Positions 2,065 through 28,609 of a stretch of DNA of 64,000 nt are shown here, piece by piece. Source of the DNA: Candidatus Woesearchaeota archaeon (GTDB taxonomy: Archaea > Nanobdellota > Nanobdellia > Woesearchaeales > ARS49). The position numbers and the translations under genes were made by a program. Location: contig JAGVZE010000015.1 of NCBI GenBank assembly GCA_018302815.1, positions 2,328 through 66,327 on the forward strand. The letters are read 5' to 3'. Under the pieces are notes generated by a model. It ran no database searches. It was not told where the DNA came from and saw nothing but the letters and a program-made list of their open reading frames with translations. The stretch's first letter is position 1. Each line of letters begins with the position of its first letter.

Positions 2065-2615
2065 ACATGGAGCACATAGACATCATCGACGCACACGACA
2101 ATGAAATAGGCATAGCCACACGCGACGAAGTCCATCGCAAAGGACTCCTTCACCGGGGAATATGCGTGCTCATATTCGATTGGAACGGAAAAATATTCGT
2201 GCAGAAACGTTCTTCGATAAAAGATAATTTTCCAGGGCTTTACGAATGCGCCGTGAACGGCCACGTGCTCAGCAGCGAAGCGTACCATCAAGCGGCAGTG
2301 CGGGAATTGCGAGAAGAGCTAGATATAATCACTGCTCCTGCTAAAGTCAAAGAGATAACTCGATTCGGCTTCCATGAATCGAACGAACGGATGCTTGTGA
2401 CGCTCTATGCGCTAAAGGACTTTCACGGAAAAATGCTCCAAGATAGGGAGGAATTAAGTCAAGGTGAATTTTGGACGATGCAAAAACTTCAAAACGAGCT
2501 TAAGAAAAACCCCGCTAAGTTTTACCCCAGTTCTAAAAAATCTTTAGACTTATTCTCAGAATTCGACGCAGAACCCAGAGCATTTATGAACGTAAAGCGC
2601 ACAAAACTTAAATAG
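2061..2615 (+). CDS. Nudix hydrolase
   Basis: Nudix box GHVLSSEAYHQAAVRELREELDI (Gx5Ex7REuxEExGu). Start overlaps upstream stop by 4 nt (operon). Confidence 0.75.
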   Translation: MNMEHIDIIDAHDNEIGIATRDEVHRKGLLHRGICVLIFDWNGKIFVQKRSSIKDNFPGLYECAVNGHVLSSEAYHQAAVRELREELDIITAPAKVKEITRFGFHESNERMLVTLYALKDFHGKMLQDREELSQGEFWTMQKLQNELKKNPAKFYPSSKKSLDLFSEFDAEPRAFMNVKRTKLK

Positions 2616-2640
2616 TCCCGTTCTTGATGAATGTTCTTAG

Positions 2641-3600
2641 ATGAATGTTGTCGTCATCGGTGGAGGCACCGGAAGTTACACTGTTCTTAAAGGGCTAAAA
2701 CAGCTCACATCAGGCATAACTGCCATCGTTTCAATGTTCGACAGCGGAGGAAGCACAGGACTTCTTCGCGATGAATTCGGAGTCTTACCTCCGGGAGATG
2801 TTCGGCGCTGCCTCATTGCCCTTGCAGAAGATGAAACTCTTCGCGACCTATTTCAGTATCGATTCAAGACTGATAGCAGCCTGCACGGACATTCATTAGG
2901 AAATTTGTTTATTACAGCTTTAAAGCACATCACAGGAAGCGATGCGCAGGCAATAAAGCTCGCATCCCGCCTGCTTCGCATAAAAGGCACAGTGCTGCCC
3001 GTAACGCTTGGAAACGCGCACCTATTGGCGGAACTTGAAGATGGAACAACAATCAAAGGCGAAACGCACATCGACATTCCTGCGCATAACGGAGCGCTTA
3101 GAATCAGCAAGCTAAAACTCGATCCTCCTGTAACTGCAAATGATGAAGCTTTAGCAGCGATAGAAAAAGCAGACCTTGTGGTAATAGGACCCGGAGATTT
3201 ATTCACAAGCGTTCTTCCCAATCTTCTTGTCGATGGAGTTTCTTGCGCGCTTTCAAAGACAAAAGCGCTCAAAGTATACGTTTGCAATTTGATGACTAAA
3301 TTCGGCGAAACAACCAATTTCACAGCTTCAGAGCACCTCAAAGAAATCATAAAATACGGATGCAAACCGGACGTAATACTTTGCAATAACGCAAGTTATT
3401 CCCAAGAACTCATTAAAGCATATCATGAAAATAAGCAAACGCCTGTTGACATCGACAAAGAAGCAATAAGCCGATTAGGAGTTGAATTAGTGACGGCTGC
3501 GCTTTCTACTTCGCCGGACCTTATCAGGCATGATTCGCTCAAGCTCGCAAACGCTCTTTTACTTTTGAAGCAGAAGAACGATCGCGACAATAAGGAATAA
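2641..3600 (+). CDS. YvcK/CofD-family protein (UPF0052, gluconeogenesis factor/2-phospho-L-lactate transferase-like)
   Basis: N-terminal VVIGGGTGSYTVLKGLK and LPPGDVRRCLIALAE motifs characteristic of the YvcK/CofD family. Confidence 0.7.
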   Translation: MNVVVIGGGTGSYTVLKGLKQLTSGITAIVSMFDSGGSTGLLRDEFGVLPPGDVRRCLIALAEDETLRDLFQYRFKTDSSLHGHSLGNLFITALKHITGSDAQAIKLASRLLRIKGTVLPVTLGNAHLLAELEDGTTIKGETHIDIPAHNGALRISKLKLDPPVTANDEALAAIEKADLVVIGPGDLFTSVLPNLLVDGVSCALSKTKALKVYVCNLMTKFGETTNFTASEHLKEIIKYGCKPDVILCNNASYSQELIKAYHENKQTPVDIDKEAISRLGVELVTAALSTSPDLIRHDSLKLANALLLLKQKNDRDNKE

Positions 3601-6856: not shown

Positions 6857-6996
6857 ACAGTCATTAGATGCGAGTATGTATAAAAAGCTAATTGGCGATT
6901 GGAATTTAAGATTAGTTCGTTTGTGATTCTTAATTCTTAGTTAAATTTATAAGGCAACGAGTGCGAGAATTTGAAAGGATAGACGATAATCCTTTT

Positions 6997-7080
6997 GCGG
7001 CCATGGCACAATCCGGTACTGCGTCGGTCTTGAAAACCGATTTCCGAAAGGATATCCCGGTTCAAATCCGGGTGGCCGCG
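6997..7080 (+). tRNA. tRNA-Ser (anticodon TGA)
   Basis: Acceptor GCGGCCA/TGGCCGC, 3-bp D stem GCA/TGC, anticodon arm TCGGT-CTTGAAA-ACCGA, long variable arm TTCCGAAAGGA, T arm CCCGG-TTCAAAT-CCGGG, discriminator G. No encoded CCA. Confidence 0.85.
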
Positions 7081-7130
7081 TATTTTTATTTCTCAAAAAC
7101 TTCGTTATTGTAATTTTTGTGTATATTGTC

Positions 7131-7220
7131 ACCCTGATTTGAACATCTGCGGACTGCTAGGCAGTCCTTGACATCAAAATTCTCGCGCCGCTCGAATTTC
7201 GATGAATCCGGGTGGCCGCG
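7131..7220 (+). repeat. tRNA-Ser(TGA)-attached structured repeat unit (inverted T-loop copy ... 7-bp hairpin ... direct copy of tRNA 3' terminus)
   Basis: 7131-7147 ACCCTGATTTGAACATC is the reverse complement of the tRNA T-loop/3' T-stem (14 of 15 nt). GGACTGCTAGGCAGTCC is a perfect 7-bp hairpin. 7204-7220 AATCCGGGTGGCCGCGT repeats the last 17 nt of the adjacent tRNA. The module 7137-7173 is homologous (inverted) to 22408-22444 at the tRNA-Glu locus. Confidence 0.6.
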
Positions 7221-21550: not shown

Positions 21551-22060
21551 ATGGAGAACTATATATTGCAGAATACAGTGGGTCCGCTCGTATTATGCGG
21601 AATACAAGGAACAGTAACGACACTCACGCCTCAAATTCCTCAAGGCCAAGGAATAGAATTCGGCATCTGGCAGCAGCAATTAAGAACCTCATTTTATACT
21701 GGATTCCACCGAAAACCGCCAGTTTACATAGTCGCGGACAGAACACGCCTTGCTGAAACATCAATAATCACAATCGGACTTGACTTCAAAGTCTCAAAAG
21801 AATTAATCAAACAAGTCGCCGGCTCATTCGGCCTTTGCCCAAGACAGGCAGACAAATCATTTGAAAGACGTATCAAAATAGACCTTTCAAACCTAGAACA
21901 AATGAAAGTCGATGAGTTCACAGAACTCTCCAAAAGGACAGGCATACCACTCGAATGCGCATTCGGAATGATACGCTACGCCAACTTCTTAACAATGCAA
22001 ATGGGAGTAGAACGAGACGATGCGATGAAACGAGCGCTTCAAGAGTATGGACCGAAGTAA
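21551..22060 (+). CDS. hypothetical protein
   Basis: 169-aa ORF, no recognisable motif. Confidence 0.35.
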   Translation: MENYILQNTVGPLVLCGIQGTVTTLTPQIPQGQGIEFGIWQQQLRTSFYTGFHRKPPVYIVADRTRLAETSIITIGLDFKVSKELIKQVAGSFGLCPRQADKSFERRIKIDLSNLEQMKVDEFTELSKRTGIPLECAFGMIRYANFLTMQMGVERDDAMKRALQEYGPK

Positions 22061-22082
22061 AATTTCTGATTTTAAATAAAAA

Positions 22083-22619
22083 ATACGCCGACGCCAGGAT
22101 TACTCGCAAACCTGCGGTTTGCGAGCTTTCAAATTCGCTTCGCTCATTTGAAATGAATCCAATTGTTCAAATCCCGTAACAAAGGTGACGATACAAAACT
22201 TCGTTTTTGAAATATGCCGACGCGGGGAGTCATACGACGCGAAGGATATCGCGAGGATGTCAACAACCACTCGTTAAAACAAGTGGCGTGTTTGACATAG
22301 TCACAATTAACCAATCCTGCTCGTGGTTGTTGAGCATGCTCGGAATGCCACCTAATTTGGTTTGCACAGGAGCAAACCACGATATAAAACCGGTGGCATT
22401 CCGACATGTCAAGGACTGTCATGCAGTCCGCAGATGTTCAAATCCGGCGTATAACCGCAGATTATGCTAGAACGAAGTTCTTTTGTAAAAATATATGCCG
22501 ACGCCGGGATTACACGCAAACTGCGGTTTGCGAGTTTTCAGGCTCGCTTCGCTCACCTGAAATGAACCTGTGGTTCAAATTCTTGTAGTGTCTGTTGAAA
22601 GAGCTTCGCTCTGAAAGTA
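22083..22619 (-). repeat. tandem array of three tRNA-Glu-associated structured repeat units (about 129, 281 and 127 bp)
   Basis: In the tRNA (minus) orientation each unit ends with AATCC(C/T)GGCGTCGGC(A/G)T, a copy of the tRNA-Glu 3' terminus; in unit B only the last 10 nt (GCGTCGGCAT) match. Each starts with an inverted T-loop segment (GTTCAAAT on the plus strand at about 22176, 22436 and 22573). Units A and C share a 9-bp hairpin (CTCGCAAAC-loop-GTTTGCGAG) and a second hairpin with a conserved loop GAGCGAAGCGA. Unit B carries modules shared with the Ser(TGA) and Ser(GGA) loci. Confidence 0.6.
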
Positions 22620-22694
22620 TGCCGACGCCGGGATTTGAACCCGGGTCTCAGCCGCGAGAGGGCCGAATACTTGACCGGACTATACTACATCGGC
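22620..22694 (-). tRNA. tRNA-Glu (anticodon CTC)
   Basis: Minus-strand sequence GCCGATG-TA-GTAT-AGTCCGGTCAA-GTAT-T-CGGCC-CTCTCGC-GGCTG-AGAC-CCGGG-TTCAAAT-CCCGG-CGTCGGC-A. D-loop AGTCCGG is archaeal Glu-like. D stem is weak (G.U and U.G pairs). No encoded CCA. The ORFs called over it (22595..22780, 22635..22970) are spurious. Confidence 0.75.
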
Positions 22695-22808
22695 TTAATG
22701 GCCCGAAGTCGTCAGGGAACCCTTGCGCTCGGCACCGGATTTCTGACGCGGGCAGTGCTAAAAGACCGCTATCCGTTTAAAAAGGTATCGCTCGAGATTT
22801 CAGGAAAA

Positions 22809-23261
22809 CTAATCGAATTCGCACACGGTATAACAATTCTGTCCAGTGCCGTCATACTTGCTCCTGCAGACTTTTTCGCAGTCATATTTTGCCGAAGGAA
22901 CATCAGGGCCTCCGCATCTGCCCACTTGATTGCAGTATTGCGACAAACACTGCTTGTTCTCTGCGCATAATTCGCCATCAGAAAGACTAGTCAAAGCACA
23001 TCTGCCGCTCACACATTTGGTAGGTTTTGCGCAATCGCAATCAGTTTGGCACGATTCGCCAACAACGCTAAAACCTTTGCAGGGAAAAGTGACTTGCGAA
23101 GGCTCTGCTATGGCTGGCTGTTCTATCTGTTGAGCGCACGCTGATAAAATCAAGAGCAACAAAACCCATATCATGCCTTGCGTTCTTAAGGGTGCATTTA
23201 AAAGAATTTCTATTCCATTTCGCCACGTGTATACTCTGAAAGCACTTTTCAGTCCTAGCAA
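22809..23261 (-). CDS. secreted cysteine-rich small protein
   Basis: Signal peptide (MIWVLLLLILSACAQQ). Mature region with 14 Cys in CxxxC and CxxC spacing (knottin or granulin-like pattern). Confidence 0.45.
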   Translation of the reverse strand: MLGLKSAFRVYTWRNGIEILLNAPLRTQGMIWVLLLLILSACAQQIEQPAIAEPSQVTFPCKGFSVVGESCQTDCDCAKPTKCVSGRCALTSLSDGELCAENKQCLSQYCNQVGRCGGPDVPSAKYDCEKVCRSKYDGTGQNCYTVCEFD

Positions 23262-27106: not shown

Positions 27107-27128
27107 ACAGAGCGCTCAAAAACCACGT

Positions 27129-27211
27129 GCTGTCGTCGCATAACCTGGTATTGCACAGGCCTGGAAAGCCTGACCCGCAAGGGTATCCCGGTTCAAATCC
27201 GGGCGACAGCG
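27129..27211 (+). tRNA. tRNA-Ser (anticodon GGA)
   Basis: Acceptor GCTGTCG/CGACAGC, 3-bp D stem GCA/TGC, anticodon arm CAGGC-CTGGAAA-GCCTG, long variable arm, T arm CCCGG-TTCAAAT-CCGGG, discriminator G. No encoded CCA. Confidence 0.85.
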
Positions 27212-27257
27212 TATATTTTCAGTTAAATAATTTTGTTCTAATCCGCTATGTTCTTAA

Positions 27258-27316
27258 CCGCCCGGATTTGAACATCCTCGCGATATCCTTCGCGTCGTAT
27301 GACTTCTGGCCACAGC
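27258..27316 (+). repeat. tRNA-Ser(GGA)-attached structured repeat unit
   Basis: CCGCCCGGATTTGAAC is the reverse complement of the tRNA T-loop/3' T-stem (15 nt). The module CATCCTCGCGATATCCTTCGCGTCGTATGAC (27274-27304) is the reverse complement of 22229-22259 in unit B at the tRNA-Glu locus. It ends CCACAGCG, mimicking the tRNA 3' end CGACAGCG. Confidence 0.55.
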
Positions 27317-27348
27317 GTGTAGTTTAGTCAAATAATCTCTTTTCAATT

Positions 27349-28532: not shown

Positions 28533-28609
28533 TGGTGGCGGTGGCGTGATTTGAACACGCGACAACCGGCTTATGAAACCGGTGCTCTGCCAGGCTGAGC
28601 TACACCGCC
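28533..28609 (-). tRNA. tRNA-Met (anticodon CAT; elongator-type, G1:C72)
   Basis: Minus strand GGCGGTG-TA-GCTC-AGCCTGGCA-GAGC-A-CCGGT-TTCATAA-GCCGG-TTGTC-GCGTG-TTCAAAT-CACGC-CACCGCC-A-CCA. The 3' CCA is genomically encoded. Confidence 0.85.

Follow-up and report, generated by a model that had tools for sequence, protein, structure and literature searches.

Hairpin-forming units with tRNA-specific end copies lie behind tRNA genes in a Woesearchaeota genome and in other archaea

The tRNA-Glu(CTC) gene of a Candidatus Woesearchaeota archaeon (GenBank assembly GCA_018302815.1, contig JAGVZE010000015.1) is followed by three consecutive units, A, B and C, which belong to a widespread archaeal family of short (~95-280 bp), non-coding, hairpin-forming units associated with tRNA gene 3′ ends. 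The window analysed here comprises 64,000 nucleotides of that contig (positions 2,328 to 66,327 of the forward strand), and coordinates given without another label refer to it. The feature common to the family across lineages is its design and not its sequence: the units have a fixed architecture with copies specific to the local tRNA, recur across archaea, contain stems that covary without preference for one strand, differ in presence between relatives and have exchanged internal modules. Archaeal viruses and plasmids integrate mainly at tRNA 3′ ends, and small DNA behind these is usually dismissed as a scar. The units quite possibly represent non-autonomous hairpin insertion units specific for tRNA ends, or the domesticated descendants of such units, a reading which we place somewhat short of probable and for which we infer mobility, a folded active form and an enzyme.

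The tRNA-Glu(CTC) gene is intact and lies on the minus strand at 22620-22694 (ARAGORN; Rfam tRNA, 56.8 bits), and its T-arm and 3′ end are the source of the sequence copied in the three units. Downstream of the gene, on the same strand, come in this order units C (22619-22493), B (22492-22212) and A (22211-22083), and past them a convergent gene for 169 aa ends with its stop codon at 22060. An earlier reading of this stretch (hereafter the original prediction) had proposed three such units, and tRNA calls together with a scan for 16-mer repeats confirm them with these coordinates. The 16-mer TGCCGACGCCGGGATT, the reverse complement of the tRNA-Glu 3′ end, is found in the tRNA itself at 22620, without mismatch at 22496 in unit C, and with two mismatches at both 22215 in unit B and 22086 in unit A; the window contains five matches at up to three mismatches, against 0.30 expected. 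These 16-nt repeats are spaced 129, 281 and 124 nt apart and enclose homologous structured DNA, in agreement with the prediction that the locus is not a CRISPR array. No open reading frames (ORFs) are present inside the units.

The units of the window follow a common plan. In tRNA orientation the tRNA is followed by a T-rich spacer of 38-51 nt containing a small hairpin with a GAA or TTC loop, then by an inverted copy of tRNA positions ~53-67, after which a hairpin body leads to the direct copy, of positions ~58-73. The inverted T-arm copy anticipated in each unit is thus there, although it lies 38-48 nt past the preceding tRNA-end copy and not at the start of the unit. Unit C presents a spacer hairpin AGAGC-GAA-GCTCT (22600-22612), a degenerate 9-nt inverted copy GGTTCAAAT (22572-22580), two body hairpins, hp2 (22536-22562) and hp1 (22512-22535), and a direct copy of the tRNA end matching at 16/16 positions (22496-22511). 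Unit A has the same parts, with the spacer hairpin at 22194-22209, the inverted copy GTTCAAATCCCG matching at 12/12 positions (22165-22176), hp2 at 22127-22153, hp1 at 22103-22125 and the direct copy (14/16) at 22086-22101. Units A and C are homologous, with 84% identity over 90 nt, and the hairpin pattern they have in common occurs twice in the window against none expected. The perfect hairpin of 9 bp attributed to both holds for unit A, where hp1 is a perfect 10 bp, while in unit C hp1 contains an A.A (T.T) mismatch.

Unit B is of a different kind. Its spacer hairpin (22469-22481) and 10-nt inverted T-arm copy GTTCAAATCC (22436-22445) are followed by two modules, M1 (about 22406-22435) and M2 (22228-22260), and by a tRNA-end copy at 22215-22230, which keeps 14 of 16 positions and not only the 10 nt originally credited to it. 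Between the modules, pairwise alignment with a related contig (L091, below) delimits a nested, highly palindromic insert of ~146 nt (22261-22406) to which no strand is assigned. The insert contains perfect inverted repeats of 13 nt (I2) and 11 nt (I9) and is flanked by the repeat ATGT(C/T)AA, its exact ends being ambiguous by ~4-7 nt.

Some further features were observed around the locus and elsewhere in the window. No evident TATA-like box is found 20-35 nt upstream of tRNA-Glu (22695-22760), and a cysteine-rich ORF of 150 aa on the same strand (22809-23261), 115 nt upstream of the tRNA, may form one transcript with it. The intergenic stretch 42600-42760, flanked by divergent genes and without a called tRNA, contains two inverted repeats of 20 nt that interleave, GGTTCGATACCCCGCAGCTTGCTGCG / CGCAGCAAGCTGCGGGGTAT and GAAATTGCCTGAAAACTCGC / GCGAGTTTTCAGGCAATTTC; one of the arms is T-arm-like (GGTTCGATACC), and 14 nt match unit C (CCTGAAAACTCGC).

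The hairpins of the units are maintained, as the covariation of their stems indicates. The loop of hp2, GAGCGAAGCGA, is conserved between units A and C while its stem reads TTTCAAAT/ATTTGAAA in A and TTTCAGG/CCTGAAA in C; every stem difference between the two units in hp2 and in the spacer hairpin is compensated, four pairs being cleanly changed on both sides. The compensatory changes that the original prediction had noted in hp2 are thus real, and they extend to the spacer hairpin. When the homologous unit of a third locus (L053, described below) is added, 12 of 36 pairs are changed on both sides and 95% of cells are paired in an alignment which is itself fitted to the model; none of 500 shuffles scores as high, and sliding the pairing partners collapses the signal. 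Among ten halophile-like units the stem beside the T-arm arms covaries as GGAAG/CTTCC, GCCAG/CTGGC and ATCAG/CTGAT, without G.U intermediates. The selection on secondary structure that had been proposed is borne out in all three comparisons (A with C, halophile-like, and model-based), in each of which hairpins are kept through compensatory change.

The further step from covariation to a transcribed RNA is not supported. All compensations pass from one Watson-Crick pair to another, and among 24 distinct units both strands fold equally well and the predicted G.U pairs, which are few, are distributed without strand bias (53 in the tRNA-sense strand, 69 in the other), which favours DNA hairpins over an RNA read from one strand. 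This strand symmetry points to a DNA hairpin or cruciform, or to a structure used on both strands. We consider it unlikely that the units are structured small RNAs, derived from the tRNA trailer or transcribed independently from either strand, which would act on the cognate tRNA or its processing as decoy, sponge or signal. Such RNAs would account for the compensated stems with their conserved loop, for folding z-scores of about -2.5, and for a conservation between two genomes far above neutral. They would also suit the perfect acceptor-stem-like minihelix of a second type of halophile unit and, on our reading of the sequence, the T-runs after the spacer hairpins and the plus-strand, A/T-rich TATA-like boxes just upstream of every unit. 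In units A and C, two pairs of the tRNA-sense strand are G.U and would be mismatched on the opposite strand; they also favour RNA but are too few to weigh. Against them stand, besides the strand symmetry and the lack of G.U intermediates at covarying pairs, the occurrence of the spacer-hairpin loop in either orientation among units (GAA or TTC), the breaking of the M1 hairpin in L091 without compensation, and the gain and loss of whole units and inserts between relatives. Rfam recognized only tRNAs at the gathering score, gave no credible hit within 21900-22900 when relaxed to E up to 10, and had no match in 12 related loci.

The architecture is not a feature of one tRNA, as had been supposed, since both tRNA-Ser genes of the window are followed by such units, which points to a general arrangement at tRNA 3′ ends. 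On the plus strand, tRNA-Ser(TGA) (6996-7081) is followed by a unit at 7082-7220 with the inverted copy CCCTGATTTGAAC (7132-7144) and a direct copy of its own tRNA end, AATCCGGGTGGCCGCG, matching at 16/16 positions (7205-7220). Also on the plus strand, tRNA-Ser(GGA) (27128-27212) is followed by a unit at 27213-27317 in which the inverted copy CGCCCGGATTTGAAC (27259-27273) matches its own T-arm and the start of the acceptor strand at 15/15 positions, and the tRNA-end copy is degenerate (11/16; 27302-27317). The four-part layout is found at three of the four tRNA genes of the window, tRNA-Met (28533-28609) having no unit behind it, and the copies are specific to the tRNA concerned: CGGGATTTGAAC for Glu, CACCCTGATTTGAAC for Ser(TGA) and CGCCCGGATTTGAAC for Ser(GGA). 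The bodies, in contrast, are shared across loci. Module M1 of unit B is found in the Ser(TGA) unit with 90.5% identity over 42 nt, and module M2 recurs in the Ser(GGA) unit (27271-27304), 33 nt being identical. Each local tRNA is thus the source of both copies in its unit, or the copies have been matched to it, and the bodies are modular.

The tRNA-Ser units came to light through a junction in an independent assembly (L005; Logan SRR3989338), which starts in the 169-aa gene, crosses unit A and the M2 end of unit B, and passes into sequence of the 27.2-kb region of the window. From there it continues, reversed and 100% identical, into the Ser(GGA) unit and tRNA-Ser(GGA), the switch lying at M2 (22228-22260 against 27271-27304). 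This contig may be an assembly chimera across the 33-nt M2 or reflect a real inversion of ~5 kb between the M2 copies in a subpopulation. In at least seven independent assemblies (L003-L008, L091, L094) the arrays at tRNA-Glu and tRNA-Ser(GGA) mark the place where contigs stop, either within an array or shortly before it; short-read assemblies are broken there by the repeats or by differences between strains within them. When the Ser(GGA) locus was sought in relatives through its neighbouring proteins, contigs stopped before the tRNA or synteny was lost. The groundwater samples ERZ4903055, ERZ4903072 and SRR3989338/44 contain this genome.

The same layout recurs well beyond this genome. A metagenome scan for T-arms with an inverted copy of themselves 40-70 nt further on, in which a direct copy was not required, returned 37 loci, a minority of them convergent tRNA pairs and 23 with a single tRNA. 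At 19 of these 23 a direct copy of the tRNA 3′ end lies 100-170 nt downstream, and in 14 it is perfect over 12 nt. The loci fall into a GC-rich halophile-like group (tRNA-Ala GGC/CGC, Gly TCC and Pro), a Thermococcales-like group (Pro, Glu and Arg) and others; arrays of units are present at L063, L073, L085 and L086/87/89, and a haloarchaeon in culture, Natronorubrum bangense JCM 10635, shows the same arrangement behind tRNA-Gly(TCC) (NZ_CP031306, near 823,150-823,440). The direct copy begins to match within the T-loop in each case, at G53 in halophile-like, T55 in Thermococcales-like and A58 in the window sequences. Two motifs recur in distant groups, namely the A/C hairpin loop GAGCGAAGCGAG and the Ser(TGA)-unit motif ATTCTCGCGCCGC.

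Further copies exist in related and unrelated genomes, which supports the original prediction. With a covariance model constructed from unit A, unit C and the L091 copy of C, a full-length match is recovered behind tRNA-Ser(GCT) in another organism of 44% GC (L053; 33.7 bits, E ~1e-6-1e-5), and it ends in the tail of its own tRNA-Ser(GCT). When all units were compared by BLAST with all the loci fetched, every copy lay directly behind a tRNA.

Several variants accompany these loci. At L058, L071, L073 and L085, in the second units of arrays, a halophile type of ~65-85 nt lacks the inverted T-arm and has in its place the 3′ strand of the acceptor in inverted form (e.g. GGACTCGCCG...CGGCGAGTCCA), so that a perfect minihelix resembling the acceptor stem is formed, with the discriminator base as its end. 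Thermococcales-like tRNA-Arg(TCG) contigs (L089, 4033-5500; L086, ~2630-2985, minus strand) present one full unit and then a truncated second one, which in L089 runs straight into a CRISPR array (repeat CTTCCACACTATCCAGTGCTTCTGAAAC) and in L086 is followed by a single copy of that repeat. A halophile-like tRNA-Ala unit (L060, ~2100-3437) is interrupted exactly inside the T-loop of its direct copy, between CTCTGGGTTC and CTGTGAATTC. Past the cut lies ~1.3 kb of foreign low-GC DNA with a 405-aa protein that has no Pfam match, and the second half of the cut site was not found.

Comparison with close relatives shows that units and sub-units come and go while those retained are conserved far above neutral expectation. 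The contig L091, from the same aquifer study, has the same gene order and an identical tRNA-Glu; identity is 76% for a neighbouring protein, 85% for the flanking DNA, 61-82% at third codon positions and 77-87% in short spacers between genes. Unit C, by comparison, is the same at 124 of 127 nt (97.6%). Unit B is present in a short form with 91-96% identity, in which M2 abuts M1 and the 146-nt palindromic segment edged by ATGT(C/T)AA is missing, and unit A is absent, the indel being edged by repeated ATA[C/T]GCCGACGC. A difference in presence or absence at this locus, which the original prediction had named as a check, is thereby found. In the Thermococcales-like group L087 has an extra tandem unit, 100% identical, relative to L086 and L089. 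Across halophile-like loci of different lineages often only the tRNA and the unit can be aligned, with identity of 84-92% over the unit against 74-83% for neighbouring coding DNA. The conservation of the units retained in L091 reflects either purifying selection or recent exchange, and may have its source in a recombination tract anchored on the tRNA.

A rival reading takes the units for a selected, vertically inherited cis-acting DNA feature of the host, serving as a bidirectional terminator or insulator against the convergent gene, or as a decoy or backup tRNA end that absorbs integration hits or acts as a repair template. All three arrays of the window lie between a tRNA and a convergent gene, A- and T-runs flank the spacer hairpins as in bidirectional terminators, and the strand symmetry agrees with such a role. 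So do the persistence of units at tRNA-Ala(GGC) across many halophile-like lineages, with identity at least equal to that of coding DNA and perfect tRNA-end copies, and the L060 locus, where foreign DNA starts in the direct copy of the unit and not in the tRNA. A terminator, however, needs no T-arm copies in both orientations, the number and content of units vary between close relatives, and bodies are exchanged among tRNA loci; with the proposed function itself a conjecture, we regard a host feature of this sort as rather improbable.

A mobile origin offers one route to the layout. On a single strand the inverted copy (~53-67) would pair with the direct copy, which runs from the T-loop to the discriminator base, and the folded stem would reproduce as a duplex the T-arm and acceptor region of the target tRNA gene. 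The unit could then recombine in or beside the T-loop, bringing with it a replacement tRNA 3′ end. Since the incoming unit would supply this new end, the tRNA would stay intact and the site would be regenerated, allowing units to stack in the order C, B, A. The variable start of the direct copy within the T-loop (53, 55 or 58) would fit strand exchange across a 7-nt overlap. By analogy, the succession of hybrid site, spacer, inverted arm, loop and hybrid site is the residue that integration through a folded-hairpin attachment site would be expected to leave.

A number of observations weigh against such mobility. The same tRNA-Ala locus is occupied in at least eight halophile-like lineages with conservation equal to or above that of neighbouring coding DNA, and this persistence with perfect tRNA-end copies looks more like selected vertical inheritance. 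One body, M2, is found with arms for two different tRNAs, which is awkward for an element that carries a copy of its target. Gain and loss between direct repeats of 10-20 nt can proceed by slippage or unequal crossing-over with no dedicated enzyme. No recombinase, integrase, transposase or Rep was found by Pfam among window ORFs of at least 150 aa, nor downstream of 14 metagenome loci, where genes are mostly housekeeping, with the exception of one TnpB-like ORF of 397 aa at L065. This ORF, recognized by eye only, lies 1423-2616 past the tRNA end, 1.4 kb from a tRNA-Ala unit, has a C-terminal zinc-finger/RuvC-like motif typical of IS1341-type TnpB, and is the only transposon-type gene near any unit.

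Nor was a full-length autonomous relative seen. M2, the A/C hairpin motif and the Thermococcales-like unit met no relative in viral and phage collections. Scans of viral contigs for the first two gave nothing or chance coding matches, and for the general layout pattern only chance matches and phage tRNA clusters. In BLAST against plasmids there was no match to the Thermococcales-like unit, and the one replicon matched by the halophile unit was a chromosome-like one of Natronorubrum. An 18-mer of M1 met only chance bacterial matches in contigs of species-representative genomes, a set that apparently does not include the genome of the window. A full-text literature search returned no description of the architecture of hairpin units at tRNA ends.

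Ordinary integration scars, in which decayed attL and attR sites were stacked by integrase-bearing viruses or plasmids that repeatedly used this tRNA and whose cargo was later deleted, have two points in their favour. A direct repeat of the 3′ part of a tRNA that begins in the T-loop is the classic mark of integration targeted to tRNAs (PMC9897764; PMC5861418), and decay is slightly further advanced in the outer copies than in the inner one. Yet plain remnants fit poorly because of the target-specific inverted copy in every unit, the size, which is uniformly 95-281 bp across more than 20 independent loci that lack integrase and cargo, the tRNA-end copies that are still perfect in most loci, and the conservation of unit C well above its flanks. 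The covarying stems and the recurrence of the A/C type at another tRNA in another organism speak in the same direction, and we hold this origin to be very improbable. Of the three suggestions made originally (a tRNA-derived small RNA, a family resembling MITEs, or stacked att remnants), the MITE-like family comes closest. We judge the hairpin units to be neither CRISPR nor a recognized family of RNAs nor, in all likelihood, ordinary att remnants. It is tentatively proposed that they form a new class of hairpins at tRNA 3′ ends, either mobile DNA carrying a folded mimic of its target and mobilized by a recombinase, or a conserved cis-element with exact sense and antisense copies of the T-arm and tail of the tRNA.

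Either outcome would matter beyond this locus. The supposed scar is here a fixed, target-specific hairpin design in Woesearchaeota-like DPANN, halophile-like and Thermococcales-like sequences, with stems that covary and a conservation that can exceed that of neighbouring genes. If the units are mobile they would reveal an unrecognized recombination system acting on tRNA T-arms, possibly via folded DNA; if they are host elements they would add an unknown layer to the biology of tRNA loci. In practice, the units break metagenome assemblies at tRNA loci and risk being misread as tRNA fragments.

Several known arrangements of tRNA-related or repeated DNA do not describe the units. A split or permuted tRNA of the Nanoarchaeota type is excluded by the complete tRNA-Glu and by the restriction of the copies to positions ~58-73, with no 5′ acceptor strand; a bulge-helix-bulge, intron or split-tRNA arrangement is likewise excluded by the intact tRNA and by arms that pair without bulges. 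Reverse transcription from a mature tRNA would leave CCA, which the copies lack, and a tRNA-like cloverleaf that can be drawn for unit A is not kept in unit C. A casposon-like element, with end duplication and terminal inverted repeats, and a strict MITE are both rejected, as no terminal inverted repeat lies inside the duplicated tRNA ends and the only long inverted repeat is derived from the target; the target duplication, moreover, is 16-26 nt with a variable start and not the short, fixed-length duplication of a MITE.

Among known mobile elements, the att repeats of tyrosine integrases, as in Thermococcales islands and SNJ2-type proviruses, share with the units the direct repeat of the tRNA 3′ part from loop to end, the intact tRNA and the stacking. 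In the known cases the repeats enclose an element that encodes an integrase; integrated elements of 9-23 kb leave tRNA fragments (PMC9897764) and SNJ2-type integrases use a 14-bp core in tRNA 3′ ends (PMC5861418). The units have such flanking repeats (22496, 22215 and 22086 for tRNA-Glu; 7205-7220 for tRNA-Ser(TGA)). They differ in their size of 95-281 bp, in having no linked integrase or kilobase-scale cargo among the window ORFs of at least 150 aa or at the metagenome loci, and in an extra inverted copy of the target that pairs with the direct copy. The small non-coding mobile repeats of Haloquadratum, which include elements of ~110 bp that insert into palindromes and whose mobilization is unknown (PMC3119063), are closer in scale. 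The IS605-derived PATEs and SMR-A of this group (PMC3119063) resemble the units in size (~50-150 bp), non-coding nature, palindromes and nesting in palindromes, in the loss of core sequence by repeat-mediated deletion and in a mobilization mechanism that is partly unknown. PATEs and SMR-A are dispersed, with no tie to tRNA ends and no target copies, whereas the units were seen only directly behind tRNAs. PATEs of IS200/IS605 type have similar palindromes near both ends, insert 3′ of a target of 4-5 nt without duplicating it and have a TnpA/TnpB partner in the genome. Palindromes are present in the units too, but these have long flanking repeats, and the window contains no TnpA or TnpB, the L065 ORF being the only TnpB-like gene found. 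Cis-mobilizable elements (CIMEs) are kilobase-sized, att-flanked deletion derivatives of identifiable integrative and conjugative elements and can be mobilized in trans. The units share with them att-type flanking repeats, the lack of a recombinase of their own and tandem accretion at one site, and differ in having no identifiable parent element.

A formal parallel in layout is with recombination sites that act as folded hairpins. The attP(+) site of CTX phage, an integrative mobile element exploiting Xer (IMEX) that uses XerCD at dif, and the attC site of integrons both fold to present two inverted, target-like arms; in attC these are the R″/R′ boxes RYYYAAC/GTTRRRY, with IntI encoded nearby and cassettes that usually contain an ORF. 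By analogy, the inverted arms of the units, tens of nucleotides apart, would form a stem that mimics a duplex target and whose structure is conserved more than its sequence, and the order of hybrid site, inverted arm, loop and hybrid site, with a site regenerated at each insertion, would give rise to tandem arrays. The arms of the units end in ...GAAC and GTTC..., and so hold the AAC and GTT triplets of attC. An integron attC array as such is rejected, the locus having no integrase and no unit ORFs and its arms ATTTGAAC/GTTCAAAT deviating from the consensus at the fourth base; similarly, the inverted-arm layout of an IMEX is present, while no Rep or Xer-exploiting replicon was found. The target of the units is the T-arm of a tRNA in place of dif or attI, and their arms are specific to each tRNA. 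Set beside these systems, the units are classed here among the insertion elements that target tRNAs, as a variant not described before, and the chance that they represent a new kind of element or cis-structure is substantial.

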